From NCBI GenBank assembly GCA_944329385.1, contig CALVIE010000001.1, positions 2,168 through 66,167 on the forward strand: DNA of 64,000 nt. Direction: 5' to 3'. Below the pieces are notes generated by a model, which worked only from the letters and a program-made list of their open reading frames with translations, had not been told where the DNA came from and did no database searches. Below are positions 14,864-60,437 of the stretch, in pieces. The first letter of the stretch is position 1, and each line of letters starts with the position of its first letter. Made by a program: the position numbers and the translations under genes. Origin of the DNA: an uncultured Bacilli bacterium (GTDB lineage: Bacteria > Bacillota_I > Bacilli_A > RF39 > UBA660).

Positions 14864-15808
14864 TTATGATTCAATGATAAATGGATTTGTTTTACTACCA
14901 TATCCACTTAACTGTAATCCTGATTTTATGTGAACTACTGGGAAAGATGTTTCATAGGGATTATTACTCATCCTTACAGTTGTTAATGATCCTAAGTAAA
15001 AAACCCAATGATAATCATTGTTATCTTTATAATGATTTAGCAGCCATCCAAGACTGGGAATACCCCAACCTTTATTTGACACATAATTTATCCAAGTAGT
15101 ACCACCACAATTTGAACCGTAATAACTTACATTATTTGGAAAATTAGCGCAGGCTAATCTGGTATTTGTTCTAAGGAATTCTGTAACAGTGAGTATCGCT
15201 ACTTTTCCGTTCCATTTACTTGTTTTTTCGCTTTGAACAGCCAATTGCAAATTTGTTTCTGTTTTAGTACCTAAATTACCTACATTGAAATTTCTAGCAA
15301 CTATTAAATTTTTTGCTGTAGTAGAAAGATTATTATAATATGTTCCATTTAAATATGTATTTACGTTTGAGTTAGTCCAAGTGGTGTTTCCCCAAGAAGT
15401 AGTATTAGTACTACTTGATGCTCCAGTTTCAGTTAAATTTATAATTTTCATTGTTCCGTCTTTTTCTATTGATAGTATTCGCCATTCTTCATTGTTAAAT
15501 GTAATATAATTATCTACATAATTGCCTCTATAAATATATCTACCTTCTTCATATTCATCCGCATATAGTCCAGATCCAGTTGTAACTACTAAATCTTTTA
15601 ACTTAGAAGAAGTTATAGTTGAACTATCAGCTTTTTTGTAAAGTTCATCTATAGCATCTTGAACATTGGTTGCATTAAGTCCACTTGCTTTATTATCATA
15701 TGTTGTTTGATTTGACGGAAAATATGTTACAGCCGATATGCTTACTGTTCCAACAATTATTGCTGTTAATAGGCATAAAAAGCATCTATTTTTTAAAATT
15801 TTTTTCAT
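14864..15808 (-). CDS. secreted paralog-family protein P1 (divergent member; DUF6273-like core?)
   Basis: Signal peptide/TM, then the conserved block VTYFPSNQTTYDNKASGLNATNVQDAIDELY shared with 39399..40328, 44795..45741, 59484..60437 and the remnant at 30304..30606. The middle is N/T/S/W/Y-rich, and the C-terminus GSKTNPFIIES is related to the GDGSxNPY end of the other copies. Confidence 0.6.
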   Translation of the reverse strand: MKKILKNRCFLCLLTAIIVGTVSISAVTYFPSNQTTYDNKASGLNATNVQDAIDELYKKADSSTITSSKLKDLVVTTGSGLYADEYEEGRYIYRGNYVDNYITFNNEEWRILSIEKDGTMKIINLTETGASSSTNTTSWGNTTWTNSNVNTYLNGTYYNNLSTTAKNLIVARNFNVGNLGTKTETNLQLAVQSEKTSKWNGKVAILTVTEFLRTNTRLACANFPNNVSYYGSNCGGTTWINYVSNKGWGIPSLGWLLNHYKDNNDYHWVFYLGSLTTVRMSNNPYETSFPVVHIKSGLQLSGYGSKTNPFIIES

Positions 15809-23999: not shown

Positions 24000-25282
24000 T
24001 TGATATTAAATTAATACGTGAAAATAGAGATTTAGTTAAGGAAAATATTAAAAAGAAGTTTCAAGATAAGAAACTTCCTTTAGTTGATGAGGTATATGAA
24101 CTTGATATTAAATGCCGTGAAGCTAAGTTAAAAGGTGATGAATTAAGGGCTTTAAAAAATGAAAAAAGTGCTTTAATTGGAGCTTTAATGAGGGATGGAA
24201 AAAAAGAGGAAGCAGAAAAGGTAAAAAAAGAAATTAGTTCATATAGTGATGAAATTTTATATTTAGAGAAAAAAGAAGAAGAATATAGGGGTAAAATTCA
24301 TGAAGATATGATGGTAATTCCAAATATTATGGATCCATCTGTTCCTATAGGTGAAGATGATAGTAAAAATGTGGAGTTAGAAAAATTTGGAGATCCTATT
24401 ATTCCAATATTTGAAATTCCACATCATGCGGATATTTGTGCGAAGTTTAATGGATTAGATAAGGAAAGTGCTGGGAGAACTAGTGGAAATGGTTTTTATT
24501 ATTTGATGGGCGATATTGCAAGACTGCATTCTGCTATGATTAGTTATGCTCGCGATTTTATGATTGATAAAGGTTTTACATATTGCATTCCCCCATTTAT
24601 GATTAGAAGTGATGTTGTAAATGGAGTTATGAGTTTTGAGGAAATGGATGCAATGATGTATAAAATTGAAGAAGAGGATTTATATTTGATTGGAACATCT
24701 GAACATTCTATGATAGGAAAATTTCAAGGAGAAATTATTAAAGAGGAAGAACTTCCTATTACTTTGACTAGTTATTCACCATGTTTTAGAAAAGAAGTAG
24801 GAGCTCACGGTATTGAAGAAAGAGGTTTATATAGAGTTCATCAATTTGAAAAACAAGAAATGGTGGTTTTATGTAAAAAAGAAGATGGTATGAAGTTTTA
24901 TGATAAAATGTGGAAATATACTGTGGAATTTTTCAGGAGTTTAGATATTCCAGTAAGAACATTAGAATGTTGCAGCGGAGATTTAGCTGATTTAAAGGTT
25001 AAATCATGTGATGTTGAAGCTTTTAGTCCTAGACAAAACAAGTATTTTGAGGTTGGTTCTTGCTCTATTTTAGGTGATGCACAAGCTAGAAGGCTCGGAA
25101 TACGTATGAAAACTAAAAATGGTAATGAATATGTTACTACTTTAAATAATACTGTTTTAGCTACTCCTAGAGGTTTAATCGCATTTTTAGAAAATAATGT
25201 AAATGAAGATGGTTCTGTTAATATTCCAAAAGTTTTAAGACCTTATATGGGTGGTAAAGAAAAACTAATTCCTAAAAACTAG
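23996..25282 (+). CDS. serS: serine--tRNA ligase
   Basis: N-terminal coiled-coil arm and class II core (motif 2/3 regions around FRKEVGAHGIEERGLYRVHQFEK and GSCS); 428 aa. Confidence 0.9.
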   Translation: MIDIKLIRENRDLVKENIKKKFQDKKLPLVDEVYELDIKCREAKLKGDELRALKNEKSALIGALMRDGKKEEAEKVKKEISSYSDEILYLEKKEEEYRGKIHEDMMVIPNIMDPSVPIGEDDSKNVELEKFGDPIIPIFEIPHHADICAKFNGLDKESAGRTSGNGFYYLMGDIARLHSAMISYARDFMIDKGFTYCIPPFMIRSDVVNGVMSFEEMDAMMYKIEEEDLYLIGTSEHSMIGKFQGEIIKEEELPITLTSYSPCFRKEVGAHGIEERGLYRVHQFEKQEMVVLCKKEDGMKFYDKMWKYTVEFFRSLDIPVRTLECCSGDLADLKVKSCDVEAFSPRQNKYFEVGSCSILGDAQARRLGIRMKTKNGNEYVTTLNNTVLATPRGLIAFLENNVNEDGSVNIPKVLRPYMGGKEKLIPKN

Positions 25283-25430: not shown

Positions 25431-26156
25431 TCAAGATAGATGACTATCACCATTTGTATAATCTATAGTTATACCATCTTGAACATTATAAATATAAACA
25501 TTAAAGCAAATATCTTTACATTTATCTTCTACTGAGCTTGCTTCTATTTGAACAGCACTTGCAAGTAGATTTTTATCTTTGTAAATTGGAGTTACTCTAT
25601 ATAAAACATGATTATTTGTTTGTTTTATATAATCGGCAACTTTATTTTCAAAATCAAGCATTGCTCCGGTGTTCATCTGTCTTGTACAGGTAATTAAATT
25701 TTTTTCATTAGCGTTTTCGCCAGTTAATTGATAACCTATTAAATGACATCTATTATACAAATATTTACCACTTACAATATCATATTTAATAGTGTGCCAT
25801 CCTGATGGTTTTATCATACCGATTGATGTTCTTTCTTCTTTTGGCATAGTTTCTATGCCGACTTTGGCATATGCTACTCCTGCTCTATTTAAATAATCAA
25901 GGTCACTATAGGATTCAAATGTTTTTTTATTATAATCATTATCAGTAAAATTTGGTTTATTATTGTTTACTTCAACATATGCTTTTTGATTATATTCTGG
26001 AATGTTTTCTAAAGTATATGTATGATTTTCTAGTAATGGCTCAGTCATGAATGATTTTATTTCATTTTGATAAGCTACTGTTAAAAATATAGTAATGGTT
26101 AAAATTGATATGATTATGTTTTTATTTTTTATTTTTGATTTACTTCTTCTTTTCAT
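25431..26156 (-). CDS. membrane-anchored DNA/RNA non-specific (DNA-entry, EndA/NucA-like) nuclease
   Basis: N-terminal TM; NRCHLIGYQLTGENANEKNLITCTRQMN matches the DRGHL..NL.P.T signature (RCH variant); C-terminal block SAVQIEASS...FNVYIYNVQDGITIDYTNG as in EndA. Confidence 0.75.
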   Translation of the reverse strand: MKRRSKSKIKNKNIIISILTITIFLTVAYQNEIKSFMTEPLLENHTYTLENIPEYNQKAYVEVNNNKPNFTDNDYNKKTFESYSDLDYLNRAGVAYAKVGIETMPKEERTSIGMIKPSGWHTIKYDIVSGKYLYNRCHLIGYQLTGENANEKNLITCTRQMNTGAMLDFENKVADYIKQTNNHVLYRVTPIYKDKNLLASAVQIEASSVEDKCKDICFNVYIYNVQDGITIDYTNGDSHLS

Positions 26157-28741
26157 TATTTTGCCTCAGCCCAATTTTTACCATAATTAATATCGATGTC
26201 TAATGGGACACTTAATTTAGTTACATTATCCATTATTTCTGTAATAATTTGTTTAAGTTTTTCTAATTCGTTTTTTGGAACATCAAATATTAATTCATCG
26301 TGCACTTGAATTGTCATTTTAGTTTTTAGATTATTTTCTTTTAGAGCTTGATGAACTTTGACCATAGCTAGTTTAATTATATCGGCGGCGGTTCCTTGAA
26401 TAGGTGTATTTAAAGCTATTCTTTCACCACTTTGTCTTATTGTATATACAGTGTTTTTTAGTTCAGGTATATTTCTTTTTCTATTAAATAAGGTGGTTAC
26501 ATAACCTTGTTCTTTAGCTTTGGTTATGGAATTATCCATATATTCTTTGATACCTGGATATGTATCTAGATAAGTATCAATAAATTTTTTTGCTTCAGCC
26601 GGTCTAATTCCAATATTTTCAGCTAGTCCAAAACTACTTATACCATAAATTATTCCAAAATTAACAGCTTTGGCTACTCTACGCATTTGACTTGTTACTA
26701 AGCTTAATGGTACTTTGAAAATATCACTTGCTGTTTTTGCATGAATGTCCAATTTATTTTGAAAGGCCTCTTTTAGGGCATGGACGTCTGCCATATGAGC
26801 AAGAATTCGAAGTTCTATTTGTGAATAATCAGCACTTAAAATATAGTCATATTTTGGAACAAAAGCTTTTCTAATTAGTTTTCCATAATCATCTCTAACG
26901 GGAATATTTTGAAGGTTTGGTTCTACTGATGAGAGTCTACCAGTCCTAGTTAGATTTTGGGTATAAATGGTATGAATTTTACCATCGTTAATGGTATTTA
27001 TTAATCCTTCGACATATGTTCCATAAATTTTAGCTAGTTTTCTATATTCAATAATTTGATTTATAATGGGATGTTTATCTTTTAGTTTTTTTAAAACATC
27101 AATGGCGGTTGAATAACCACTAGCAGTTTTCTTTTTATGAGGAAGATTTAGTTTTTCAAATAATACTTCACTTAATTGAGATGGTGATGAAATATTGAAC
27201 TCGCATCCAGCGTTATTATATATATCTTTAGTTAAAAGTTCTAATTTTATTTTTATATCTTCTCCCATGTTTCTTAGTACATTAGCATCAACTTTAACAC
27301 CATTAAATTCCATATCGGCTAGAACTGATGCGAGTGGGAATTCTATTTCATTATAAAGATATTCTATGTTATCTTCTTTTATTTTATTTTGAAAAAATGA
27401 TTTTGTTTCATATATAAATCTAGCACGATTTACACATTCTTTAGCAATTATATTTTCTTCTGGCTTCTTTAATGTAGAGTTTTTACCATATATTTTTTCA
27501 TAAAATTCTAAATTATAATCTACTTGATTGGCTAGGTATGCAATATCTTCTTTCATATTATAGTCAAGTAGTGCGCCGGAAATCATTGTGTCAAATGTTA
27601 CATTATCAATATTTATATTTTGCCATTTTAAAGCAACAATGGTCTTTTTTAAATCATATGTATATTTTTGATTTTCTTTTAGAAATTTTGGATTTTGTTT
27701 TAATATTTCTAAAGGAATAAAATAAGATATTTGATCATTATATACTCCCATACCAAGGATTTCTGCTTTATGATAGTTTTGACCTAGAGTTTCTAGATAA
27801 ATAGCAATATCGCCATCAATTTTTATATCATTTACATCTTTTATTATTTGAACGTTTATTTCTTTTTTGGAAGGTTCTTTAATGTTTAGCTTTTTTAAAA
27901 ACGAGTAAAATTCTAAATCTTCATACAATTCGGTCAGTTTTTCTTTGTTTTCTCCTTGATATTTAGTATCTTCAACTGATATTTCAAGTGGGACATCTTT
28001 GATAATGGTGGCAAGATTGTATGATTTATAAGCGTTTTCTTTATCTTGAACTAATTTTTCTTTTAATTTTCCTTTGATTGATTCTATATTATTATAAATA
28101 CCATCTAAAGTTTTATATTCATGAAGTAATTTTAAAGCGGTTTTTTCACCCACACCTTTAACACCTGGAATGTTATCTGAAGGGTCACCCATTAAGGCTT
28201 TTAAGTCAATGACATTTATTGGATTAATTCCATAGTCTTTTTTAAATGTTTTTTCGTTATATCTAATATAATCTTTTTGTTTTAAAAGTTTTATATCAAC
28301 ATCGTTAGAAATTAGTTGTAGTAAGTCTTTATCACTACTAACAATGGTTCCAATAAAGTCAGGGTCATCATCACAAAATTTGGCGAATGTACCAATAATG
28401 TCATCAGCTTCATAATTGTCTATTTCATAGTATTTTATACCCATAGCAGTTAATAATTCTTTGGCTTTTGGAAACTGTTTTTTTAATTCATCTGGAGTTT
28501 CTACTCTACCGTCTTTATAATTTTCATACTGTTCATGTCTAAAGGTTTTCCCTTTATCAAAAGCAACTAAAATATATTCTGGTTTTTCTTCGCTAATTAT
28601 TTTATATATCATGTTTACAAATCCAAATAAGGCATTAGTTGGAAAACCTTTACTATTATTCATAAAGTTGCCATTATAAGCGGTGGCATAATAGCTTCTA
28701 AACATAAGATTATTTCCATCTATCATTGTTATTTTTTTCAT
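26156..28741 (-). CDS. polA: DNA polymerase I
   Basis: 5'-3' exonuclease N-terminus, Klenow-like polymerase domain with the RRVAKAVNFGIIYG O-helix and the VHDELIFD motif C; 861 aa. Confidence 0.9.
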   Translation of the reverse strand: MKKITMIDGNNLMFRSYYATAYNGNFMNNSKGFPTNALFGFVNMIYKIISEEKPEYILVAFDKGKTFRHEQYENYKDGRVETPDELKKQFPKAKELLTAMGIKYYEIDNYEADDIIGTFAKFCDDDPDFIGTIVSSDKDLLQLISNDVDIKLLKQKDYIRYNEKTFKKDYGINPINVIDLKALMGDPSDNIPGVKGVGEKTALKLLHEYKTLDGIYNNIESIKGKLKEKLVQDKENAYKSYNLATIIKDVPLEISVEDTKYQGENKEKLTELYEDLEFYSFLKKLNIKEPSKKEINVQIIKDVNDIKIDGDIAIYLETLGQNYHKAEILGMGVYNDQISYFIPLEILKQNPKFLKENQKYTYDLKKTIVALKWQNINIDNVTFDTMISGALLDYNMKEDIAYLANQVDYNLEFYEKIYGKNSTLKKPEENIIAKECVNRARFIYETKSFFQNKIKEDNIEYLYNEIEFPLASVLADMEFNGVKVDANVLRNMGEDIKIKLELLTKDIYNNAGCEFNISSPSQLSEVLFEKLNLPHKKKTASGYSTAIDVLKKLKDKHPIINQIIEYRKLAKIYGTYVEGLINTINDGKIHTIYTQNLTRTGRLSSVEPNLQNIPVRDDYGKLIRKAFVPKYDYILSADYSQIELRILAHMADVHALKEAFQNKLDIHAKTASDIFKVPLSLVTSQMRRVAKAVNFGIIYGISSFGLAENIGIRPAEAKKFIDTYLDTYPGIKEYMDNSITKAKEQGYVTTLFNRKRNIPELKNTVYTIRQSGERIALNTPIQGTAADIIKLAMVKVHQALKENNLKTKMTIQVHDELIFDVPKNELEKLKQIITEIMDNVTKLSVPLDIDINYGKNWAEAK

Positions 28742-28816: not shown

Positions 28817-29767
28817 TTATGATTTTATATTTTGAATTGTTTTTTCATCTAAACCTGTTAATCTAGAAATATCAGATATTTTCATTTTTTCTTTTAACAT
28901 ATTTTTAGCAATTTCTAATGCTTTTACTTTTGATCCTTGTTCAATTCCCTGTTCAATTCCAAGTTCTCTTCCTTGTTCAATTCCAAGTTCTCTTCCTTGT
29001 TCTAGGCCTTCTTTTACTGCTTCATCATGATCAATTTTTTTCATCCATTCATCCATTTTTTCTTTGTCATATAAACCTATAATGTGTTCATCTTCATTTA
29101 AATCTTCAATTATTTTCGCCATATTTTCTAAGTCTTCATCTCCTTTAGATATTTCTTTTAACTGTTTTTTACTTGTTAATTGAAACATTACTAATACTTT
29201 CTCAATTTTTGAAAGTTCATTATTATTATAATACTTATCTAAAGGATTTGCCATATTTATATGGATTCTTTTAAAATTTTCTTCATCCGTAAATTTTCCT
29301 GTATCATCTTTCATACTAAATTCAATGAATAGTCGGTCATCAAATCTATTTATAACATTAAAGTTTAACTGTAATATTTCACTTTTATCCATTTTATTTC
29401 CTGATAAATATCTATCGTAGGCAATTTTATGATGATATACATTATTTTTGGCAATCATACTTGCTTTTGCAGTTTTATTGGCTTCAATATTTATTATTGT
29501 TCCTTCTACTTTTACTATAATATCAGTTATCTTTTTTCTTTCTTTATAATTTTCAAGTGGTAATTCTGTATTAGCAAACACTAGATTTTCAAAAATATAT
29601 CCTGGTGAATAAACAGTGACATGACTTATGATCAAAGATAGTAATTTTCTAAATTTTGGATTTTGAACAATGGATTTAAATATTGGATCAAACATTGATG
29701 TTATGAGTGTATCTGGATTTTTCTTTGTTTCAGGTTTAATACTTGTTTTTGTCATATACTCCTCCAT
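28817..29767 (-). CDS. Rpn-family recombination-promoting nuclease / putative transposase (PD-(D/E)XK, Transposase_31/YhgA-like), copy 1
   Basis: N-terminal DPIFKSIVQNP...DIIVKVEGTIINIEANK core plus C-terminal EQG repeats (LEQGRELGIEQGRELGIEQGIEQG) and the tail IAKNMLKEKMKISDISRLTGL. The tail is nearly identical to that of 43657..44556. Confidence 0.7.
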   Translation of the reverse strand: MEEYMTKTSIKPETKKNPDTLITSMFDPIFKSIVQNPKFRKLLSLIISHVTVYSPGYIFENLVFANTELPLENYKERKKITDIIVKVEGTIINIEANKTAKASMIAKNNVYHHKIAYDRYLSGNKMDKSEILQLNFNVINRFDDRLFIEFSMKDDTGKFTDEENFKRIHINMANPLDKYYNNNELSKIEKVLVMFQLTSKKQLKEISKGDEDLENMAKIIEDLNEDEHIIGLYDKEKMDEWMKKIDHDEAVKEGLEQGRELGIEQGRELGIEQGIEQGSKVKALEIAKNMLKEKMKISDISRLTGLDEKTIQNIKS

Positions 29768-29866: not shown

Positions 29867-30185
29867 TTAATCAAAATTTTTATTAATTAAATCATCTATT
29901 TGTACTTCATAAATTTTAGATAAAATTATTAATTTTTCTAAAGTAATATTTTTTGAGGTGTAATTAGGGTTTTCTAATCTATTATAATGTCTTCTTGATA
30001 TACCTAATAGTGAGGATATATTATCTAAACTATAGGGATTATCTATTTTATTATTTAGATTTTTATATTCATTATAATGGTTTAACCTTATTTTTTTTTA
30101 GATTAGATGCGAGTATTTTTTCAAAATTACTGTTTTTTACATTTTCAGCTATTTCTTCCATTTGATATGCTTGTTTGATATGCAT
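29867..30185 (-). pseudogene. HTH (XRE-like) DNA-binding gene interrupted by a frameshift at an A9 homopolymer (possible phase-variable or sequencing-error site)
   Basis: ATG with SD AAAGAGGTG; frame 1 stops shortly after the A9 run (T9 on + at 30091-30099). With A8 the frame continues as ...NLKKIRLNHYNEYKNLNNKIDNPYSLDNISSLLGISRRHYNRLENPNYTSKNITLEKLIILSKIYEVQIDDLINKNFD, an HTH. Confidence 0.5.
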
Positions 30186-30303
30186 ATAAACACCTCTTTT
30201 TATAATTATCACATTTGAATTGTCAAAACGTGAGACATTTTGGGTGCTTTTTTTAGAAAATTATGATATACGAAAATGTAATAAAATAACGAAAGGAAGG
30301 AAA

Positions 30304-30606
30304 ATGGATATTTAGAAAAGTGGTTAGTTTTTTAAAAAGAATATTTTAGGTATTATTATTGGTGGAGTAATATTTGGAAGTTTAGGTGTTTGTGCGGCCA
30401 CCTATTTTCCTAGTAATAATGTAACATACGAAAACAAAAATAGTGGTTTAAAAAGTACTGATGTCCAAGGGGCGATAGATGAACTTTATACAGCTTGCTC
30501 AGAGCTAGCGACTCCGCCAACTCTAGGTGATACAATACTAGAAGATGTGCCAATAGTATCGTCAGGCGATGGTTCTCAAGAGAATCCATTTAATATTTCT
30601 TTATGA
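30304..30606 (+). pseudogene. degenerate remnant of the secreted paralog family, with N- and C-terminal conserved blocks fused and in-frame stops near the start
   Basis: ATG GAT ATT TAG ... then GIIIGGVIFGSLGVCAATYFPSNNVTYENKNSGLKSTDVQGAIDELYTACSELATPPTLGDTILEDVPIVSSGDGSQENPFNISL*. A 67-nt block at 30424-30489 is about 99% identical to P2 at 40151-40217. Confidence 0.5.
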
Positions 30607-30636
30607 TATGCAAAAACAAGTCTAAATTGACTTGTT

Positions 30637-33600
30637 TTAAAATAAAGATAACTGACTGGATTCATCCATCCCCTCTAATATGCCCATGGTTCTTAATTTT
30701 TCAATTAAGGTTGAGGAAAGTTTTGCTCTTTTTTGTAAATCTTCGATGCTTATGAAAGATTTCTTTTCTCTTTCTTCGACGATGTTTTTAGCAACTACTT
30801 CTCCAAGACCATCAATAGCTCTAAATGGAGGAATTAAGTTACCATCATCATCAATTACAAAATCATGATAATGACTTTTATATAAATCAATTGGTTTAAA
30901 TTTAATGTTTCTAGCTAAGGCTTCTAAGGCAACTTTTAAACATTCTAATACTGAAGATTCTTTGTTTGTTGCATCATATCCTTTTTCGTTAATTTCAATA
31001 ATTCTTTGTTTAACGGCTTCATAACCTTTGATCATAGATTCAATATCAAAGTCATCATATTCTGCTGAAAACTGAGCTGCATAATAAACTGCAGGTTTAT
31101 GTACTTTATAATAAGCTAGTCTAAAAGCATTAATTACATAAGCTACGGCATGAGCTTTTGGGAACATGTATTTTATTTTTCTACATGATTCAATGAACCA
31201 AGGTTCAATACCAGCAGATTTTAAAATTTCTGTATATTCAGCCCACTGTTCTGGTTCTTTTGTCGCTTTTCCTTTACGGACAAATTCCATGATTTTAAAA
31301 GCTTTGATAGGTTCTACTCCATGGTACATTAGATAAACCATAATATCATCACGACATCCTATTACTTCACTGAATGGGACAATTCCTTGATCAATTAGGT
31401 CTTTGGCATTGCCATTCCATACATCGGTACCATGTGATAAACCTGAAATTTTGACAAGTTCAGCAAAGGTTTTTGGTTTAGTTTCTTTGACCATTTGTAA
31501 AGTAAATGGGGTTCCAAATTCTGGAATTCCTAAGGTACCTGTTTCATTCATAATTTGTTCTTTAGTGACTCCTAAAGGTTTTGGGGATAAAAATATGCCC
31601 ATGGTTTCTTTATCGTCTAAAGGTACTTTGGTAACGTCATCGCCAGTTATATTTTGAATTAGTCTAAGTTTTGTTGGTCCAGAGTGACCTAAAATATCTA
31701 ATTTTAAAACATCTTGATCAATAGCGTGATAATCAAAATGAGTGGTACGCCATGCGGAGGTTATATCATCAGCCGGATACTGAAATGGTGTAAAGTCAAA
31801 GACATCCATATATCCTGGTATTACTACTATGCCACCTGGGTGCTGGCCTGTGGTTCTTTTAACACCAGTGCAGCCTTTAGCTAGTCTTTCTATTTCAGCA
31901 GTTCTCATGGTTATTCCTTTATCTTCACAGTAACCTTTGACATAACCAAAGGCTGTTTTATCAGCAACTGTACCTATTGTTCCTGCTCTATATACATTAT
32001 CTACTCCAAATAATACTTTGGTATATTCATGGGCAGCAGCTTGGTTTAAATCTGAGAAATTTAGGTCAATATCTGGAACTTTATCAGCATGAAATCCTAA
32101 GAAAGTGGCAAATGGCATATCTTGCCCCTCTTTATTTAATTTGGCTTTGCATTTTGGGCAGTTCATATCGGGAAGATCATATCCACTTCCATAATCTTCA
32201 CCGAGTGGTTTACCATTTAATTCAAAGATAGAATGTTTACAATTTGGACATACATAGTGTGGTGGTAAGGCGTTTACTTCGGTAATTCCCATCATTGTTG
32301 CCACTAGTGATGAGCCAACTGATCCTCTACTACCAACTAAATATCCATCATCGTTTGATTTTTTTACTAATTTTTGTGCAATTAAATATATAACATCGAA
32401 ATTTGCTCCTATTATACCAGTCATTTTATTTTTTATTTCATTATCTGTAATGTTAGGATTTTCTTCTTTAAATAAGTTAATTACTCCTTCTTTATAGCTT
32501 TTCATGACATCATTTAGTTTTTTATGAATTTTTGTTTGATATTCTTCTTCGCTTAAATTATCTTTAGATATTAATTTTTTTATAGTATTAAATGGTTCAT
32601 CACCATATAATTCTGAAGCTAATCTTTCTTCAATGTTATAAGGTAATGGGTAGCCATATATAGATTCGGCTTTACTATAAACCATATCTGTGGTGGTTTC
32701 TGTACAGTTTGGAATTTTTGGAGCGAAAGGAATACCTCCCGTATCAATAATGACTTCGATAATATCAATCATATCAGCTATTTTATTAGGGTTATCAATA
32801 ACTATTTCTTTTGCGAGTTCTTTTGGTAAAAACTCAAACTCTTGCATCATTTCGTCAGTTGTTCTTAGATATTGATTAGGTATTTTTGTAATATTTTTTT
32901 TAGCTAGTGGATGTCTACCACCACCTGGAACTTTTTGATTTACGATAATTTCTCTATAAATTCGGTCTTCTGGTTCAATTTGGTGAACGTCCCCTGTAGC
33001 AACAATTAGTTTTCCTGATTCTTTGGTGACTCTAATTATTTTTTTTATGTGTTCTATAAGCTCTGCTTTGTTTGCAAAATCGCCCATTTGAAGCAAATGG
33101 TCATAGACAGCTGGGGGCTGAACTTCTACGTAATCATAAAAATTTATTAGATTTGATAGTTCTTCATCGTTTTTACTTCTTGCTTGAATAAAAATTTCAC
33201 TTTCATAACAGCCACTACCAATCAATAATCCTTCTCTATGGTTTTCTATTTCACTTCTAAGAATTCTTGGTGTTTTGTATAGATATTTTGTGTTGGCTAA
33301 GGATATTATTTTAAATAAGTTTTTTAGACCTTTTTTATTTTTAGCTAATATATTCACATGGAAGCTGGCACCATATTTATGAATTTCATCTTTTGAAACT
33401 AATTTATCTAAATCTTTTATAGTTTCAAAATTTCTAGATACTAGTTTTTTTAGCATTTTATGAAATACTAAAGCAGTTCCTTCGGCATCATAATCACCTC
33501 TATGGTGGGCAGATTCATCCCATGGAACATCATATCTTTTAACTAAAGCGGACAGGCTATGTCTTGCATATCCTGTATCTAAGGTTCTTGATAATTCTAG

Positions 33601-35130
33601 AGTATCAATGACGGTATTGGTAAATGAACCTAGGTTATATTTACTATGAGCCATAGCGATGAATGAAACATCAAATTTTGCATTGTGGGCAACCATTGGA
33701 AGATCTCCCACCCACTTTTTAAATCTTTTTATAGCGTTTTCTTCGGTATCTTTATCTTGAAGCATATCATCAGTGATGTTAGTTAATTCGATGATTTTTG
33801 CTGGCAATTTTCTTCCAGGATTGATTAGTTCATCAAATCTATCAATTATTTCACCATTATTAATTTTTACAGCACCAATTTCGATAATTGAGTCGGTACC
33901 ACCGGCATTAAATCCTGTTGTTTCTAGGTCAAATACAACATAGGTTGTTTCTAATAGTTTTAAGTCTGATGGTCTTAAGACTATATTGACACTATCATCG
34001 ATTAAGGTTAATTCTGTTCCGTAAAGGGCTTTGAATTTATCTTTTTCATCTTTTCCTTTGTTATATTTTGTAACTAAATTAAAGACATGTGGGAAGGCTT
34101 GGCATCCATTATGGTCGGTAATAGCTATAGCTTTATGGCCAAATTTCATAGCTGCTTCAACTAATTTTACTTCATCGGCGACTCCATCCATTTGACTCAT
34201 TTTAGTGTGAGCATGAAGTTCTACTCGTTTTTTTTCTGATTCATCTTTTCTTATAACATCTTCTTTTTGAGATATATTAATATCTCTGGCATTTAAAACT
34301 ATTTCGCCTGAATATTTATCATTTTTAGTATATCCTCTAATAATATAATATTTGCCTTCTTTTAAAGCTTTTTTGTATTTATTATACTCTTCATCTTCTC
34401 TTGAAAATATTTTACAGTACATACTGTCAGTACCATCGGTTATTTTTAAGGTGATTATTTTAAAGTTACTTTTAGATGATTCAAAAAAATCGATACCAAA
34501 TATTTTAGCGTCAACAGTGACGTTATCCATTTCAAAGGTTATTAGGTTAATTGGTGTTGGTTCTGATGTAATTTCTTTTCCCATAATAAATGGGCTTTCT
34601 TTTTTTTCAGTTATTTTAGGAGTGATTTTTGTTTTTTCTTTTTCTATTTCTTCTCTTAATTCTTGGGCTTTAAGTTCATCTATTTTAGTAATGATATTAG
34701 TATTAAAGCCTGCTTTATTTAAATCTTCTTTGAGTATTTTTTTAATGCTTTGAAATTTCATTTCTTCGGCTTTATTTGTTAGGTTAACAATTAAATTGTC
34801 ATCATCTAAGGTAATGTTAATATTTATAAACATTTTTAGTAAAGGTGCCTCTTTACTATAGTTTTCCAAAAAATGATTATAATATTCTTTTAGGTCTTTT
34901 TCAGTATAATTTTTGGCACTGATTTTAGCACTTACGTTTACTTGGTTAAAATGTTTTTTTAAGTTATGAATAAATTTTATATATATTTTTAAAGGTAAAA
35001 TATTATTTAATGTTAAGCAAAAAAGGTATTTGTCTTTATTTTTGTTACAAATAATTTTATCTAATTTTCCATTTTCAAAATATTTATTTTCAATATTTAT
35101 TTGATTTAATAATAAGGAAAGTTTGTCCAT
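30637..35130 (-). CDS. polC: DNA polymerase III PolC-type (alpha subunit, Gram-positive)
   Basis: 1497 aa with an OB domain, PHP domain, the inserted DEDDh 3'-5' exonuclease (VVFDLETTGF...) and the polymerase core; the architecture is unique to PolC. Confidence 0.95.
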   Translation of the reverse strand: MDKLSLLLNQINIENKYFENGKLDKIICNKNKDKYLFCLTLNNILPLKIYIKFIHNLKKHFNQVNVSAKISAKNYTEKDLKEYYNHFLENYSKEAPLLKMFININITLDDDNLIVNLTNKAEEMKFQSIKKILKEDLNKAGFNTNIITKIDELKAQELREEIEKEKTKITPKITEKKESPFIMGKEITSEPTPINLITFEMDNVTVDAKIFGIDFFESSKSNFKIITLKITDGTDSMYCKIFSREDEEYNKYKKALKEGKYYIIRGYTKNDKYSGEIVLNARDINISQKEDVIRKDESEKKRVELHAHTKMSQMDGVADEVKLVEAAMKFGHKAIAITDHNGCQAFPHVFNLVTKYNKGKDEKDKFKALYGTELTLIDDSVNIVLRPSDLKLLETTYVVFDLETTGFNAGGTDSIIEIGAVKINNGEIIDRFDELINPGRKLPAKIIELTNITDDMLQDKDTEENAIKRFKKWVGDLPMVAHNAKFDVSFIAMAHSKYNLGSFTNTVIDTLELSRTLDTGYARHSLSALVKRYDVPWDESAHHRGDYDAEGTALVFHKMLKKLVSRNFETIKDLDKLVSKDEIHKYGASFHVNILAKNKKGLKNLFKIISLANTKYLYKTPRILRSEIENHREGLLIGSGCYESEIFIQARSKNDEELSNLINFYDYVEVQPPAVYDHLLQMGDFANKAELIEHIKKIIRVTKESGKLIVATGDVHQIEPEDRIYREIIVNQKVPGGGRHPLAKKNITKIPNQYLRTTDEMMQEFEFLPKELAKEIVIDNPNKIADMIDIIEVIIDTGGIPFAPKIPNCTETTTDMVYSKAESIYGYPLPYNIEERLASELYGDEPFNTIKKLISKDNLSEEEYQTKIHKKLNDVMKSYKEGVINLFKEENPNITDNEIKNKMTGIIGANFDVIYLIAQKLVKKSNDDGYLVGSRGSVGSSLVATMMGITEVNALPPHYVCPNCKHSIFELNGKPLGEDYGSGYDLPDMNCPKCKAKLNKEGQDMPFATFLGFHADKVPDIDLNFSDLNQAAAHEYTKVLFGVDNVYRAGTIGTVADKTAFGYVKGYCEDKGITMRTAEIERLAKGCTGVKRTTGQHPGGIVVIPGYMDVFDFTPFQYPADDITSAWRTTHFDYHAIDQDVLKLDILGHSGPTKLRLIQNITGDDVTKVPLDDKETMGIFLSPKPLGVTKEQIMNETGTLGIPEFGTPFTLQMVKETKPKTFAELVKISGLSHGTDVWNGNAKDLIDQGIVPFSEVIGCRDDIMVYLMYHGVEPIKAFKIMEFVRKGKATKEPEQWAEYTEILKSAGIEPWFIESCRKIKYMFPKAHAVAYVINAFRLAYYKVHKPAVYYAAQFSAEYDDFDIESMIKGYEAVKQRIIEINEKGYDATNKESSVLECLKVALEALARNIKFKPIDLYKSHYHDFVIDDDGNLIPPFRAIDGLGEVVAKNIVEEREKKSFISIEDLQKRAKLSSTLIEKLRTMGILEGMDESSQLSLF

Positions 35131-35308: not shown

Positions 35309-37531
35309 CTATTCTTTTATCTTTTGTTTTGCTTTAGATAGTTCTTTATAGTTTAAATTAAAATAAATTATACGATGTTGGATTGATACTTCTTTAATTA
35401 AAACATAGACTTTTTGACCTAATTTTAATTTCTGATTATGTCCGATTGCTTTGGCGTGAGCTAGATCTTGGGGGGTTACATGACCAATAATGTTATTATC
35501 AAGTCTAATTTCTGTATCGTAAGGAGTCATATTTATGATACGTCCTTGATAAATTGTTGTGTGGTCATTTTCAAACTGTCTTTGCATATATTCAGCCATT
35601 TTTAAATCTAAGGTTTCTTTTTCAGCTTTATCAGCTTCTCTTTCCATTTTTGAGTCATGTTCGCAAATTTCTGGTAAGGTATTATAGTATGGTAATAATT
35701 CAGAAGGTGTATAATTTTCATAAGGATTTGTAAATCTATGAACTATTAAATCTGGGTGTCTTCTAATTGGCGATGTAAAATGGGTATAGTAATTTAATCC
35801 CAAACCATAATGGCCATCGCAAGTGCTGGAATATTTAGCTTTGCTCATACTTTTTAATATAATTTTAGAAATTAGCAAGTAATTTTCATTTTCTTTAAAG
35901 TTTTCTAAGAAATTATTTAAATCTTTTGAGCTATAGTGACCATTTTTTATTTTGTTTATGAGGGAATCAACCTTTTCTTTTGGGCATAGTCCTTCTATTT
36001 TTAAAGTTTTTAAGGCTTCTATTAAATTATCGTCATTTGGATCTCCGTGGATTCTAAAAATTTCTGGTGTTTCTAGCCATTTATGGTATTCAGCTACACA
36101 ACTGTTGGCAGCAATCATAAAGTTTTCAATTATTTTTTCTGCGGTGTGTTGGGATCTTGATTCAAAGGAAATTGGTTCACCAGTTGGTGAGGTTATGGCT
36201 TTTATTTCATCAGTTCCAAAGTCGACTTTTCCTTTATCTTGGGATTTTTTTGTTAATAATTCAGAAAGTTCTTTCATGATAAGTAAATCTTCTTTGAATA
36301 ATGCATAATCTTTTGGAATAATGTTTTTTTCAAGTATTTTATTAACATCATCATAGTTCATTTTCTTTTTGGAGTTAATAACACTATTATAAATTAAATA
36401 ATCTAATATTTCTCCCTCAGGTGATATATACATGTCAACTGTTTTGGTTAATCTATCTACTCCTTCATTTAATGAGCAAATGCCATTAGATATTTGATGT
36501 GGAAACATTGGAATGACTGAACCGGCTAAGTAAGCTGAGGTTCCTCTTTTTTTTGCTTCGATGTCTAATGGTGATCCTTCTTTTATATAGTGAGTAACAT
36601 CGGCAATGTGGACACTTAAGATATAATGATTATCATTTGTTTTGATAATACTGATGGCGTCATCCATATCTTTGGTATCTTTTCCGTCAATGGTAAAAAT
36701 GATTTTATCTCTTAAATCTTTACGGTCTTTTAAATCTTCTTCGGTAACTTTATCTGGGATTTTTTTCAACTGTTTTATGACATCTTTTGGAAATTCTTTC
36801 AAAAAACCGTGTTCTGCAGCAATGGTTGAAACTTCAATATCTGGATCATCTTTATGACCCACTACTTTTTCTATTTTAGCTTCAAAAACGGCTTTATTTT
36901 CGATTGTGGCAATACACTCTTTGTCCATGGTTACTAATACTCTATCGCCAGTAACAATTTTTCTGAGTTGATCTTTTGGACATATTACAGTGACATTCCC
37001 ATGGATAGTATATGGAATAAATTCACCATTTCCATTATATTCAAAAATGGTTTTTCCTGTATGTCTTTTAATGATTTTTTCTACTTTAGCATCGGCGTAG
37101 TTGGTTTTACCATGGTGAATATTTGTTAATACGACAACGTCATTTTCTAATGCACCATTTAAATCTTCTTCTTTAATTAAGTATTTTATTTTATTTCCTT
37201 TATATTCGATAAAGACAAAGCCTTGTCCTGTTTTATTTATATGAATAATTCCTTGTACTTTTCCTAATTGCTTACTATCAAATTTTTTATAATATCCTTC
37301 TTCATCTAAGTAAATTTTTCCTTCTTCTTCTAATTCATTTATGGCATTAATAAAAGAAGCTTGCATGGTTTCCCCTTTGATGTGCATATTTTTACGCACT
37401 TGGTCCAATGTAAGCTTCTTAAATTCAATATTTTTCATAATTTCATTTTTTATTTCTTCAAAGTTTAAATTTTCTTTTGACATGTTTCCCCCACCTATAT
37501 TTTTATTATAACGGGTTTTTAAATAATTCAC
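35309..37531 (-). CDS. rnr: ribonuclease R
   Basis: RNB catalytic domain (DDAISI...; YTHFTSPIRRHPDLIVHR), a cold-shock-like N-terminus and a C-terminal S1 region; 740 aa. Confidence 0.9.
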   Translation of the reverse strand: MNYLKTRYNKNIGGGNMSKENLNFEEIKNEIMKNIEFKKLTLDQVRKNMHIKGETMQASFINAINELEEEGKIYLDEEGYYKKFDSKQLGKVQGIIHINKTGQGFVFIEYKGNKIKYLIKEEDLNGALENDVVVLTNIHHGKTNYADAKVEKIIKRHTGKTIFEYNGNGEFIPYTIHGNVTVICPKDQLRKIVTGDRVLVTMDKECIATIENKAVFEAKIEKVVGHKDDPDIEVSTIAAEHGFLKEFPKDVIKQLKKIPDKVTEEDLKDRKDLRDKIIFTIDGKDTKDMDDAISIIKTNDNHYILSVHIADVTHYIKEGSPLDIEAKKRGTSAYLAGSVIPMFPHQISNGICSLNEGVDRLTKTVDMYISPEGEILDYLIYNSVINSKKKMNYDDVNKILEKNIIPKDYALFKEDLLIMKELSELLTKKSQDKGKVDFGTDEIKAITSPTGEPISFESRSQHTAEKIIENFMIAANSCVAEYHKWLETPEIFRIHGDPNDDNLIEALKTLKIEGLCPKEKVDSLINKIKNGHYSSKDLNNFLENFKENENYLLISKIILKSMSKAKYSSTCDGHYGLGLNYYTHFTSPIRRHPDLIVHRFTNPYENYTPSELLPYYNTLPEICEHDSKMEREADKAEKETLDLKMAEYMQRQFENDHTTIYQGRIINMTPYDTEIRLDNNIIGHVTPQDLAHAKAIGHNQKLKLGQKVYVLIKEVSIQHRIIYFNLNYKELSKAKQKIKE

Positions 37532-37550
37532 AACTGTTTGTTTGAAATTT

Positions 37551-38264
37551 CTAAAAATTGTTAAAGATAAAAATATATCTATCTTTTCCAGTTAAATCTT
37601 TTTCGGTGATGATTTTTGATTTTGGAAAATAAGTTTTAGCTATGTTTGTTATTTGTTTACTTTGAGTCATACCTATTTCAAAAGCAATAATACTTTTTTC
37701 TTTTAAAAATGGGTTTATTTTTTCTAAAATTTTTTTATAAAAATATAGGCCGTTTTCATTTGCATAAAGAGCAAGATGTGGTTCGTTATTATGTACTAAA
37801 GGATCTATAGTTTCACTTTTAGATATATATGGCGGATTACTTATAATAATATCAAATTGCCCTTCGACGTTTTTTAAAATGTCACTATGTTTAAAAATTA
37901 TATTTACATTATTTCTTATAGCATTTTGTTTGGCTATTTCTAAGGCTTCATTTGATATGTCGGTAGCGATAACTTTACTATTTAAATGTTTAGCTAAAGT
38001 TATAGCGATGGCTCCACTACCGGTACCTATATCTAAAATGTCTAATGGTTCTTTTAATTTTTTAGCATACTTTATGGTTTTTTCTACTAAATATTCTGTT
38101 TCAAATCTAGGAATTAAAACATTTTTATTTACGATCAAATTAACATCATAAAAGTCAACGTTGCCTATAATATATTGAACTGGAATACCTTGATTTAGTT
38201 TTTTTAATCCTTTTTCTAATTTATCTTTTGGAAGATATTTTTTTAGATATTCTTTTTCTTTCAT
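37551..38264 (-). CDS. prmC: release factor glutamine N5-methyltransferase (HemK/PrmC)
   Basis: [14 protein letters not shown] motif, NPPY catalytic motif, and a 4-nt overlap with the prfA stop. Confidence 0.85.
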
Positions 38265-39398: not shown

Positions 39399-40328
39399 TT
39401 ATTCAATGCGATAAGGATTATTTTGCGAGCCATCGCCCCCAGTGATTTTAATTTTACTAGACAAATATACGGATGGACGGACTGCAACCGTTTCATTATT
39501 GAGAACATAAGTGCCGCCACCAGCAGAAGTAATAATGAACCCGTTGTAATTGATACCACGACGAGGTGATAACGTCCACCAGCTACTAATATTATTACTT
39601 TGCATCCATGTTGTATTCATACAATTCCTATTTTCTTCATTTGATGCAAATGTTCTACAGCTGCTATTACTATTACTTCTTATATATTCACTCATTGTTA
39701 TTAAGGCAACTTTTCCGTTCCACTTACTACTATTTTCATATGTTATTTGTGAACTCATACTTGATTCAGCATAATTAATAGCTCCTATACTCCAATTTTT
39801 TGAAACAATCTGTCCTTGGGCTGTCTGATTCAAAGTTTCTGTTAAGTAACTTCCATTTAAATACGTGTTCAAATCGGATGGGCGTGCCCAGTTATTTGAG
39901 CCATTGGCTCCTCCTCCTTCATCCCACGCCATATTTCCTATACTTGCTTCTCTCATTATTTTTATGGTTTTATCATTTTCAATAGATACTATTCTCCATA
40001 TCTCATTATTAAATATTATATAATTATTTGGGTTTGTTCCTCTATAAAAATATCTATCTTCATATTCATCTTTATATAAACCATCACCAGATGACACTAT
40101 ATCCACTTTGTCAAGTATTGCTTCTCCTCCTGTTTTAGGTAAACATACATTATAAAGTTCATCTATCGCGCCTTGGACATCAGTACTTTTTAAACCACTA
40201 TTTTTGTTTTCGTATGTTACTAAATTACTATCAAAATATGTTACTGCTGATACTACTGATATACATATTAAAAAACTAAGTGTTAGTCCTATCATATATT
40301 TTTTTATAAATTCTTTTATTTTTTTCAT
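39399..40328 (-). CDS. secreted paralog-family protein P2 (best intact copy)
   Basis: MKKIKEFIKKYMIGLTLSFLICISVVSA signal, then VTYFDSNLVTYENKNSGLKSTDVQGAIDELY; core with FYRGTNPNNYIIFNNEIWRIVSIENDKTIKIM, KWNGKVALITMSEYIRSNSN and SWWTLSPRRG; C-terminus VRPSVYLSSKIKITGGDGSQNNPYRIE. Confidence 0.6.
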   Translation of the reverse strand: MKKIKEFIKKYMIGLTLSFLICISVVSAVTYFDSNLVTYENKNSGLKSTDVQGAIDELYNVCLPKTGGEAILDKVDIVSSGDGLYKDEYEDRYFYRGTNPNNYIIFNNEIWRIVSIENDKTIKIMREASIGNMAWDEGGGANGSNNWARPSDLNTYLNGSYLTETLNQTAQGQIVSKNWSIGAINYAESSMSSQITYENSSKWNGKVALITMSEYIRSNSNSSCRTFASNEENRNCMNTTWMQSNNISSWWTLSPRRGINYNGFIITSAGGGTYVLNNETVAVRPSVYLSSKIKITGGDGSQNNPYRIE

Positions 40329-44794: not shown

Positions 44795-45741
44795 TTATCC
44801 TAAAGTATATGGGCTTGATGAACTTCCATTTCCTCCTGTAATTTGGACACTAGACGATAGATAGACGGCCGGACGGACCGCACCGGTCGTATTGTTAGCG
44901 TAGACGTAGTTGACGTAGCCGTACGAAAGCACGCCGAACACGTAGTTAGAGTCACCGGCAAGAGGCGACAAAGTCCACCAATAGTCATTTATATACATCC
45001 AGCTGCTATTTTGACATGTACTATAATTATCATTTATTTTACTAAATGTTCCACAGCTACTTTGATTACTATTACTTCTTAGATATTCACTCATTGTTAT
45101 TAGGGCTACTTTTCCATTCCATGTTGTTGCTTTCTCATCATCTATTTGATCTCCCAAGTTATTATTATCCCATGTTGCTGAACCTATATTCCAATTTTTT
45201 GCAACAATTTGGCTTTGGGCTGTCGCATTTAATGTTCCTGTCAAATAACTTCCATTTAAATATGTATTCAAATCGGCTGGACGTTTCCAGTTATTGGAAC
45301 CATAGGTTCCTCCTCCTGCATCCCATGCTATATCCCCTATACTTGCATTCCTCATTATTTTGATTGTTTTATCTGGCTCTATTGACACTATTCTCCATAC
45401 CTCATTATTAAATGTTATATACTTATTTACATTGGCTCCTCTATAAAAATATCTTCCTTCTTCATAAGTATCTTCGTATAATCCGTCACCTGATGTTACT
45501 ATATCTACACTGTCTAAGATAGTATCCCCAGGAGCTGGGACTTTTGTACATTCTTCGTATAGTTCATCTATGGCTTCTTGGACATTTTTTGAAGCAAGAC
45601 CACTTGATTTATTTTCATAACTAACATCTTTTGAATTAAATGTTACTGTGGCATATACGCCTATGCTGCCAAATAGTATTAGTCCTATGACAAAACTTAT
45701 TAGATTTTTTTCACATAATATTTCATTTTTTCTTTCTTCAT
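44795..45741 (-). pseudogene. secreted paralog-family protein P3, interrupted by a frameshift in an A7 tract within the signal-peptide region (candidate phase-variable OFF state)
   Basis: ATG AAG AAA GAA AAA ATG AAA TAT TAT GTG AAA AAA ATC TAA. With A8 the frame continues as MKKEKMKYYVKKNLISFVIGLILFGSIGVYATVTFNSKDVSYENKSSGLASKNVQEAIDELYEE...FYRGANVNKYITFNNEVWRIVSIEPDKTIKIM... into the listed 44795..45388 ORF, which ends with YWWTLSPLAGD...VRPAVYLSSSVQITGGNGSSSSPYTLG. Confidence 0.5.
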
Positions 45742-59483: not shown

Positions 59484-60437
59484 TTATTTAGAACTTAATT
59501 GATACGGATTATCCTGGCTTCCATCTCCTCCGGTAATTTGGACTGATGATGAAAGTGTTACTACAGGTCGAACACCATAGCTACTTGAATAATTAGAATT
59601 AATGTGTCCGGAACTATCCACACGGTATGCATAACTTCCACTCATGATTGACAGTGTCCACCATGAATCATTTATATACATCCAACTAGTACTTTGACAC
59701 TTAGTATAATTATTATTATTTATATAAAAGGTTCCACAGTTACTTTTATCACTATTACTTCTTATATATTCCGAAACTGTTGCTAAAGCAACTTTCCCAT
59801 TCCACTTTTTATTGTTTTCAACATTTATTTGATTTTCTAAATCTGTATTAAAATTTCCTACAGGTCCTATACTATAATCGCTTGTAATTATTTGATTTTG
59901 GGCTACGCTAGTTAAATTATTATAATATGTTCCATTTAAATATGTATTTAATGTGGCTGGGCGAGTCCAATTATTATTATTTGATGAATCCCATTCCATG
60001 TTTTCTATACTTTCATATTTCATTATCTTGATACTTCCATCTGAATTTATAGATATAATTCTCCAACCAGCAATTTCTCCATTAAAGGTTACATAATTAT
60101 TTGGATTTGCTCCTTTATATGTATATTTTCCATTTTCATATTCATCTTCATATAAGCCATTTCCTTCTGTTACTATATCTATCTCGTCTAATATTGCATC
60201 TCCACCTGTTTTAGGCGGAAAACATACATTATAAAGTTCATCTATGGCTGTTTGAATATTATTTGATGTCATTCCTGTTGTTTCATTACTATATGTTACA
60301 TTTTTACTATCAAAATATGTTATAGCTGATACTGCTGATATACATATTAAGAAACTAAATGGTGTAGGATAAAGGGAATTAAAGTTACAATGGAAAAGAA
60401 AAAAAGTTAGAAATAGATGTTCATTATGGAACATCAA
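59484..60437 (-). CDS. secreted paralog-family protein P4 (altered N-terminus, in an operon with upstream membrane proteins)
   Basis: ...SFLICISAVSAITYFDSKNVTYSNETTGMTSNNIQTAIDELY; core with KYTYKGANPNNYVTFNGEIAGWRIISINSDGSIKIM, KWNGKVALATVSEYIRSNSD and SWWTLSIMSGS; C-terminus VRPVVTLSSSVQITGGDGSQDNPYQL. The N-terminus lacks the MKK n-region of P2 despite near-identical DNA from TTAATATGTATATCAG onward. Confidence 0.6.
   Translation of the reverse strand: MMFHNEHLFLTFFLFHCNFNSLYPTPFSFLICISAVSAITYFDSKNVTYSNETTGMTSNNIQTAIDELYNVCFPPKTGGDAILDEIDIVTEGNGLYEDEYENGKYTYKGANPNNYVTFNGEIAGWRIISINSDGSIKIMKYESIENMEWDSSNNNNWTRPATLNTYLNGTYYNNLTSVAQNQIITSDYSIGPVGNFNTDLENQINVENNKKWNGKVALATVSEYIRSNSDKSNCGTFYINNNNYTKCQSTSWMYINDSWWTLSIMSGSYAYRVDSSGHINSNYSSSYGVRPVVTLSSSVQITGGDGSQDNPYQLSSK

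Follow-up and report, generated by a model that had tools for sequence, protein, structure and literature searches.

Within the 64,000-nucleotide (nt) stretch of DNA from an uncultured Bacilli bacterium analysed here (contig CALVIE010000001.1; henceforth the window), the short locus P30 is very probably a pseudogene: the decaying stump of a gene next to polC that belonged to a large family encoding secreted, single-domain proteins, a family that evolves by ordinary birth and death with frequent segmental conversion. The features by which birth-and-death and concerted evolution are recognized, namely dispersed paralogs, supported conversion tracts and pseudogenes, are all present. P30, P40, P15, P45 and P60 are the labels of the five related loci that a tblastn search with the 309-amino acid (aa) open reading frame (ORF) of P40 identifies in the window (Table 1). 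The window is chromosomal DNA with 28% G+C that carries housekeeping and sporulation genes. Loci of other strains and relatives (L-numbers) were read as consensus contigs only.

As the sequence-only reading of this DNA had stated, the remnant opens with two in-frame stops: from 30304 it reads ATG GAT ATT TAG AAA AGT GGT TAG, with TAG at codons 4 and 8. The open stretch that follows encodes FFKKNILGIIIGGVIFGSLGVCAATYFPSNNVTYENKNSGLKSTDVQGAIDELYTACSELATPPTLGDTILEDVPIVSSGDGSQENPFNISL up to a stop codon, and the translation ends in ...AATYFPSNNVTYENKNSGLKSTDVQGAIDELYTACSELATPPTLGDTILEDVPIVSSGDGSQENPFNISL before that stop. Its parts are a signal-peptide core, the conserved N-module, a linker, an SGDG junction and an 11-aa C-terminal tail, and tblastn matches them to residues 26-89 and 295-308 of P40. 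The N-terminal block had been described as joined directly to the C-terminal one; both blocks are indeed present, but approximately 22 aa of the normal N-terminal linker are retained between them, up to the SGDG motif. What is missing is the variable domain of approximately 217 codons, leaving only the conserved N-module and the tail. A Pfam scan of P30 finds no domain and the gathering score of DUF6273 (PF19789; 23.5 bits) is not reached, because the DUF6273 domain has been deleted. P30 is therefore assigned to the DUF6273 family by orthology and not by domain content. The four long copies (P15, P40, P45 and P60) pass the Pfam threshold with 25.0-34.7 bits. P30 is disabled in the window strain.

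That P30 is a deletion remnant, as originally proposed, is established by a full 313-aa ortholog in the same slot of a related species (L092, with approximately 79-80% identity to the window across the flanking genes). There, the gene order is polA, a divergent HTH_3 gene (104 aa), the 313-aa family gene and the convergent polC; the encoded protein, P0164, falls into the same 90% cluster as P0122, among the closest relatives of the stump. In a nucleotide comparison (blastn), the stump region aligns with L092 from the HTH gene up to window position 30572, where the alignment stops exactly at the GGCGATGG junction. The 3' end of the L092 gene is matched by the tail, the stop codon and the hairpin downstream of P30. 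In L092, the N-side reads TCAGGAGATGG followed by CTTATAT and the C-side GGCGGAAATGG followed by TTCAGAAAG. P40 likewise carries both 8-mers, GGTGATGG at 40081-40088 and GGCGATGG at 39430-39437, spaced 651 nt apart. These form a near-perfect 8-nt direct repeat with the consensus GGYGATGG, which encodes the Gly-Asp-Gly of the 'SGDG' and 'GGDG' motifs. Approximately 650-660 nt were lost in frame in the window species between the GGYGATGG repeats, and an in-frame deletion between the two 8-mers yields exactly the stump. Slippage during replication or misaligned recombination between the 8-mers would account for the loss. All four strain sequences of the window species that cover the locus (L006, L096, L097 and L011) carry the same deletion, and the same slot has been broken independently and in a different manner in L094 and L095, where pieces of 77 and 250 aa are left. 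The hairpin between the stump and polC is likely a two-way terminator; a simple terminator scan did not call it.

Comparison among strains places further lesions on top of the deletion. L011 matches the window with 100% identity. The other three, L006, L096 and L097, derive from other samples and are 97.6-99.5% identical overall, with nearly all differences of L006 located in the P40 body. These three read ATGGATGTTTAGAAAAGTGGTTAGTTTTTTT..., which gives an open 99-aa ORF, MFRKVVSFFKKNILG... The window allele differs by a lost start codon and a T run that is one T shorter; this missing T is the reason why two TAG codons (30313-30315 and 30325-30327) stand in the frame of the body. A third window-specific difference is a synonymous change at 30369. 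Among the open P30 alleles, four coding changes are nonsynonymous and two synonymous; the stop codon is missing from one allele. P30 keeps its own 5' region and ribosome-binding site, and its start codon is present in other strains. The intergenic region towards the divergent helix-turn-helix (HTH) regulator gene contains a palindrome, TGTC-N9-GACA (30221-30237), and a candidate extended -10 box that reads TGaTATACG in the window species compared with TGcTATAAT in L094 and TGcTATACT in L092. It would represent an operator/promoter region with a weakened -10 box. The regulator gene itself is frameshifted at the A run 30091-30099 in the window strain only. Taken together, the changes in P30 are read as neutral decay of an already dead gene, with the window strain one step further along, and the stump would be free of purifying selection.

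The three homopolymer frameshifts of the window strain (P45 at 45705-45711, P30 at 30328-30333 and the HTH gene at 30091-30099), all in frame in other strains, could be real decay, phase variation or homopolymer assembly error. In L098, L099 and L103, the gene P45 is in frame, with a run of A8 or one that a G interrupts. In both paralogs, a simple repeat in the 5' coding part toggles the frame (T7/T6 in P30, A8/A7 in P45), as is expected of a phase-variable contingency locus. A public protein, P0121, shows the window stump with both TAG codons as Q. Recoding of this stop codon is ruled out, as TAG ends 11 of 42 long ORFs and the other strains are stop-free in another frame; P0121 is a gene-calling artefact, apparently through an alternative genetic code applied to a short contig.

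The stump is tied to an intact paralog by a short block of near identity. A near-identical 67-nt cassette had been reported from the letters alone, and the alignment bears this out with slightly wider limits: 69 of 70 positions agree between 30421-30490 and 40151-40220 on the reverse strand, in exact matches of 50 nt (30421-30470 versus 40171-40220) and 19 nt (30472-30490 versus 40151-40169) around a mismatch at 30471. The flanks are diverged, again as claimed, with P30 and P40 agreeing at 27/48 positions upstream and 43/70 in the linker downstream (56-61%; identities around the tract are ungapped counts). The resemblance of P40 to P60 runs the other way, with 41/48 before the block, 29/54 in the block core (53/54 for P40 and P30) and 54/70 in the linker after it. 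In a codon-anchored alignment of six copies with 79 polymorphic columns, P30 and P40 agree at 32 consecutive polymorphic sites, a run reached in none of 20,000 permutations (p<5e-5). Neither uniform divergence nor an adjacent shared repeat, the observations that would have spoken against a transfer, was found: the breakpoints are sharp and no repeat element is present. The block occurs at only two places in the window, and the exact 70-nt sequence has no match in the Joint Genome Institute (JGI) metagenome contigs. On these alignments, the 70-nt identity is a real conversion tract. That the identity stems from a repeat element or an RNA gene common to both loci was considered and is ruled out by the two occurrences and the lack of overlap with any Rfam or tRNA hit; no Rfam family reaches its gathering score anywhere in the window, and no tRNA was found there. 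The 26-nt run that had been noted in two family members, ATAGATGAACTTTATAATGTATGTTT, is present in P40 and P60.

P40 is probably the recipient of the tract. This direction is favoured because the flanks of P40 and its relatives with the same leader carry a P60-like block: P0003, P0004 and P0007, proteins of other organisms with a P40-type leader, contain the P60-type block KNVTY.NE.TGM.S.N.Q. The P30 block sits in a matching context, with TYFPSNN upstream and ACSE downstream, that is partly common to P30 orthologs and to an extra paralog of strain L001. In an ectopic gene conversion, the P30 lineage would have donated a tract of approximately 70 nt (at most approximately 90) to P40. All sequences that cover the 5' end of P40, namely the window, the P40 of L001 and the protein P0002, carry the same tract, and it is absent from P0044, the P40 ortholog of a species approximately 81% identical. 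Its presence in L001 and absence from P0044 indicate an old, fixed event. Hence, the transfer may have occurred after the split from that species and would already be common to the strains with a readable P40 5' end.

Full-length copies consist of a signal peptide cleaved at an AxA-type site ahead of (A/V)TYF, a conserved N-module of approximately 55 aa, the DUF6273 domain with two invariant cysteines and a GDGSxxNPY tail. P40 was the one copy modelled, and its AlphaFold2 model (mean predicted local distance difference test, pLDDT, of 79; 43-65 over residues 21-60, the N-module) is predicted to adopt a C-type-lectin-like fold. The best Foldseek match of this model is the IgA peptidase of Thomasclavelia ramosa (PDB 9qa6; E=1.1e-7, 283 alignment columns), below which numerous C-type-lectin structures rank with weak scores; a PDB sequence search matched no chain at the sequence level. 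T. ramosa is presumably a member of the Bacilli. The C-terminal half of the DUF6273 domain varies most between alleles; the variable region of phage diversity-generating retroelements (DGRs) lies in this half, too. Passages of two reports on gut phages describe DUF6273 as C-type-lectin-like and as a target of DGRs in receptor-binding proteins (PMC10743442; bioRxiv 10.1101/2024.10.15.618418). The N-terminal domain of the T. ramosa IgA peptidase is annotated as DUF6273 in a passage of PMC12402451. Within the searched literature, none of the papers that mention DUF6273 treats a family of this kind in its title or abstract. Exact look-ups of the window P40 and its 316-aa neighbour gave no match, and an NCBIfam search was likewise empty.

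Mosaicism extends far beyond P30 and P40. At least 209 family copies were confirmed in a scan of species-representative genomes; the 79 loci kept from it derive from seven metagenome-assembled genomes labelled 'uncultured Bacilli bacterium', a collection that does not include the window's species (best match 59%). One closed 1.52-Mb chromosome (OZ007022.1) carries at least 17 copies, and 47 of its 105 paralog pairs show unusually long concordant runs of polymorphic sites (p<0.01), an upper estimate from a test without rate variation among sites; for 17 pairs, the run was never reached in 2,000 shuffles. Exact stretches of 50-121 nt are shared among these paralogs at many gene positions. Premature stops follow 9 of 86 N-blocks in the loci of relatives. 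P30's gene family is thus unusually large and mosaic for so small a genome. As a side observation, the proteins P0125, P0126, P0138 and P0141 start with this signal peptide and N-module and continue into clearly dissimilar C-terminal parts, such as YIYFT repeats (PF26549 in P0141). The N-module appears to behave as a shared leader or docking module.

The earlier proposal of gene conversion or recombination between conserved end-blocks is upheld by the P30/P40 tract, and more strongly by the exchange of P40 bodies between strains. The genes flanking P40 are 99-100% identical between strains, yet the P40 body reaches only 68-83% (39430-40050 versus 7657-8592 of L001 and 1-680 of L006). Synonymous divergence (dS) between strains is 0.04 for codons 1-95, 1.02 for codons 96-175, 0.71 for codons 176-282 and 0.055 for codons 283-309. 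Since the body has a dS of 0.7-1.0 compared with 0.04-0.055 in the ends, the body of P40 has been replaced by recombination and not mutated in place. Three P40 bodies stand on identical ends (window, P0001 and P0002), and the C-terminal half of P0001 recurs residue for residue in P0004 on a different N-terminal half. Conserved blocks therefore bound the exchanged segment, with P40 codons 1-95 and 283-309 conserved and the halves reassorted among P0001, P0002 and P0004. These data support an exchange of P40 bodies, within the genome or between strains, with breakpoints in the conserved ends; the conserved blocks at the N- and C-terminus would serve as the homology arms that frame a variable binding domain. 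The window contains no donor of the alternative P40 body (best match 76%), and in the protein database P0004 is the only match above 66% to it besides P0001 itself.

Two other mechanisms of variation were considered for these loci. DGR mutagenesis is rejected: neither a reverse transcriptase nor a template repeat (as an extra repeat in the 3' region) was found, and the differences span approximately 560 nt with indels and saturated synonymous divergence, which indicates replacement and not adenine-directed mutagenesis. An invertible or site-specific switch is also rejected, as no recombinase gene was found and the only inverted repeats around the stump are the terminator hairpin and small palindromes of the control region. 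A domain scan of ORFs of at least 100 aa, which left out short overlapping ORFs, detected no gene for a recombinase, an invertase or a reverse transcriptase in the 64 kb.

Several observations weigh against this account of P30 or parts of it. The permutation test assumes no rate variation among sites and so inflates significance somewhat for the family-wide count, which does not, however, explain 69/70. The direction of the tract rests on flank similarity, which is no proof. The extra L001 paralog (59/70 in the block) shares the block type, and with such a third copy the donor could have been another copy. Microhomology at the deletion junction fits slippage or recombination and does not prove that mechanism. 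Finally, at least four alleles have an open 99-aa ORF, which may retain some residual function.

It is this last point that the best of the competing explanations takes up: the 99-aa ORF would be a working mini-gene for a secreted peptide consisting of the N-module only (e.g. for docking or as a decoy), with the T7 run as a slippage switch that is OFF in the window strain. L006, L096 and L097 as well as the proteins P0158-P0161 show an uninterrupted ORF, the T run varies in length between strains and thereby toggles the frame, the P45 leader has a comparable A8/A7 toggle, and the N-module is highly conserved among paralogs and also heads other C-terminal architectures. However, slippage cannot undo the other lesion of the window allele, ATG to ATA, which is independent of the first; the changes among open alleles are mostly nonsynonymous (4:2) with one stop lost; and the -10 box appears degraded relative to L094 and L092. 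In addition, T7 and A8 are short for contingency tracts, an open frame of 300 nt is expected by chance among strains that are approximately 0.3-2% apart, and the N-module by itself is modelled at low confidence. A functional mini-gene is accordingly considered unlikely, and P30 is taken further as a decaying pseudogene.

The sequence-only reading had compared the locus to cassette-based antigenic variation. In that case, P30 would serve as a silent cassette in a programme of antigenic or phase variation by recombination, donating sequence to expressed copies such as P40 through frequent one-way conversion along the conserved end-blocks. The tract does link the stump to an intact gene, the end-blocks behave as recombination arms in the population, conversion signatures are frequent across the family, and a secreted lectin-like family is a plausible target of host or phage pressure. 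Nevertheless, the stump lacks the whole variable domain and thus cannot donate variable sequence. It retains a terminator and a ribosome-binding site as well as a 5' control region of its own and, in other strains, a start codon. In place of a single expression site with promoterless donors, every copy in the window comes with an upstream region and a leader-coding start of its own, intact only in P15 and P40 in the window strain (P45 and P30 being frameshifted), and four of the five have a divergent regulator gene. The tract is unchanged in the window, L001 and P0002, the 64 kb yielded no recombinase, invertase or reverse transcriptase gene, and the window holds no donor for the alternative P40 body. 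A silent-cassette role is therefore judged very improbable, and the comparison to antigenic variation is not retained.

Two further explanations carry hardly any weight. Purifying selection combined with AT-biased codons, acting on the family's most conserved motif in a genome of 28% G+C, might in principle produce the 70-nt identity with no transfer, but with an identical 23-aa sequence and the window's codon usage 12.6 differences are expected and the probability of one or none is 2.8e-6, the extra L001 paralog has 21 of 23 residues identical in the block yet only 59/70 bases, and P60, nearest to P40 in the flanks, matches just 29/54 of the block core, so that this reading is effectively refuted. 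An assembly or sequencing artefact behind the stump or its frameshifts, to which the three homopolymer frameshifts, the possible origin of L011 (the sole 100%-identical contig) from the same assembly and the frequent breaks of metagenome contigs at family genes might point, is scarcely credible given the same deletion junction in four other assemblies from different samples, the assembly of the window-type 5' end on a separate 1,487-nt contig (P0121) and a substitution, ATG to ATA, that is not a homopolymer error.

The remaining family copies and neighbouring genes are compiled in Table 1. P60 begins directly after the stop codon of its upstream gene. P15 and P60 share an exact 35-nt run at the LNTYLNGTYYNN motif, though they are 35% identical as proteins. 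Strain L001 has its extra family copy (6350-7264) between rpoE and the small regulator gene of P40, absent at window positions 40631-40676; this is a presence/absence polymorphism within the species. Upstream of the PDDEXK_2 gene of L001, in the part where the window carries P45, no alignment between the two was obtained. Contigs from many samples (L098-L105) end in or beside the P45 gene, which suggests that assemblies break at these paralogs through strain heterogeneity or repeats. In the window, the small divergent DNA-binding genes directly upstream of four of the five copies lie at 15908-16129 (+), 29867-30185 (-), 40448-40630 (+) and 45852-46088 (+); three are of the HTH_3 type and one is similar to ribbon-helix-helix (RHH) proteins. 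Among relatives (L013-L091), a divergent ORF of 50-135 aa is found at 49/70 loci, mostly XRE- or RHH-like by eye. The Rpn-like gene near P30 has a paralog near P45 (43657-44556; 32% identical), and an Rpn-like gene lies within 3 kb at approximately 10 of 79 family loci of relatives, at most a mild enrichment. The aminoacyl-tRNA synthetase genes of Firmicutes often have T-box leaders; two such synthetase genes lie in the window (4967-5947, class I Trp/Tyr-type, and 23996-25282, seryl), with no Rfam match.

Table 1. Features of the P30 locus, the family copies and neighbouring genes in the window.
Feature	Position	Strand	Remarks
P30, stump of a DUF6273-family gene	30304..30606	+	internally deleted; from translation, tblastn and orthology
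Lost start codon	30308..30310	+	ATA in the window, ATG in L006, L096 and L097 (G to A at 30310)
T6 run	30328..30333	+	T7 in three other strains; missing T puts the 5' end out of frame
Conversion tract, 70 nt	30421..30490	+	69/70 identical to P40; encodes VTYENKNSGLKSTDVQGAIDELY
Deletion junction GGCGATGG	30565..30572	+	GGTGATGG in L096 and L097; 8-mer occurs twice in full-length copies, flanking the lectin-like domain
10-bp perfect hairpin, AAAACAAGTC-N6-GACTTGTTTT	30613..30638		between the stump and convergent polC; conserved in L092 and L094
Divergent intergenic control region	30186..30303		conserved with L092 and L094 (alignment)
Partner regulator gene, HTH_3 (XRE-type)	29867..30185	-	divergent; intact (104-105 aa) in L097, L092 and L094
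Rpn-like gene (PD-(D/E)XK nuclease family)	28817..29767	-	between polA and the HTH gene; no gene there in L092 and L094
P40, intact 309-aa paralog	39399..40328	-	signal peptide, N-module, DUF6273
Tract counterpart inside P40	40151..40220	-	
P15, intact divergent paralog	14864..15808	-	37% aa identity to P40
P45, paralog	44795..45741	-	-1 frameshift in the A7 run 45705-45711
P60, paralog	59484..60437	-	usual Lys-rich leader start replaced; leader end and 26-nt run in common with P40
polC	30637-35130		convergent with the stump
polA	26156-28741		
RNase R, prmC, prfA	35309-39325		
SpoIIP, germination protease, YunB, GerQ, YabG			sporulation-type genes

As a pseudogene with a conversion tract, the stump is routine in itself; its value is that of a marker for a larger pattern. 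In this uncultured Bacilli lineage with genomes of approximately 1.5 Mb, many loci are given to secreted C-type-lectin-like proteins. Phages diversify the same domain by retroelements; here, duplication, segmental conversion and allele replacement apparently take this role. Should surface molecules of hosts or microbes be the ligands of these proteins, the family would offer a natural system for the study of how binding specificity can vary without a dedicated mutagenic machine. A more far-reaching view, which is speculative and rather doubtful at present, holds that the DUF6273 family is a selected, DGR-independent system of diversification and expression choice, in which dozens of dispersed copies would mostly be paired with an XRE or RHH regulator of their own, short homopolymers in the leader could turn copies off, half-domain cassettes would be reshuffled by the end-block arms between loci as well as strains, and stumps such as P30 would serve as reservoirs of N-modules.

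Among known systems, the bab/hop genes of Helicobacter pylori, in which babA/babB gene conversion is accompanied by 5' repeat frameshifts, are the closest known analogue, rather than silent cassettes of the pilS or vls type. Common to both would be full-length paralogs at dispersed loci that are conserved at the 5' and 3' ends and variable in between, chimeras from segmental conversion, frameshifts in leader repeats and pseudogenised copies. The family described here differs by its secreted C-type-lectin-like fold, its occurrence in a low-GC Gram-positive lineage with another envelope and its far higher copy number (at least 17 in 1.5 Mb), with a private divergent XRE or RHH regulator for most copies. 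Silent-cassette systems include Neisseria pilE/pilS, Borrelia vlsE/vls, Mycoplasma genitalium MgPar and Anaplasma msp2. P30 resembles these in that a truncated copy shares a tract with an expressed one and in that conserved blocks bound a variable region. They rely, however, on one expression site and promoterless donors with variable segments, whereas the stump has no variable domain and has its own 5' control. With the DGR-diversified phage tentaclins and Mtd-like proteins, as they appear in passages of PMC10743442 and bioRxiv 10.1101/2024.10.15.618418, the family shares the Pfam domain and a variable C-terminal half, but not the reverse transcriptase and template repeat, which were not found in the window. 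Finally, the T. ramosa IgA peptidase (PDB 9qa6) is likewise a secreted DUF6273 protein of a gut bacterium; there, as stated in a passage of PMC12402451, the domain heads a 137-kDa multidomain protease, whereas in the family of P30 it stands alone.

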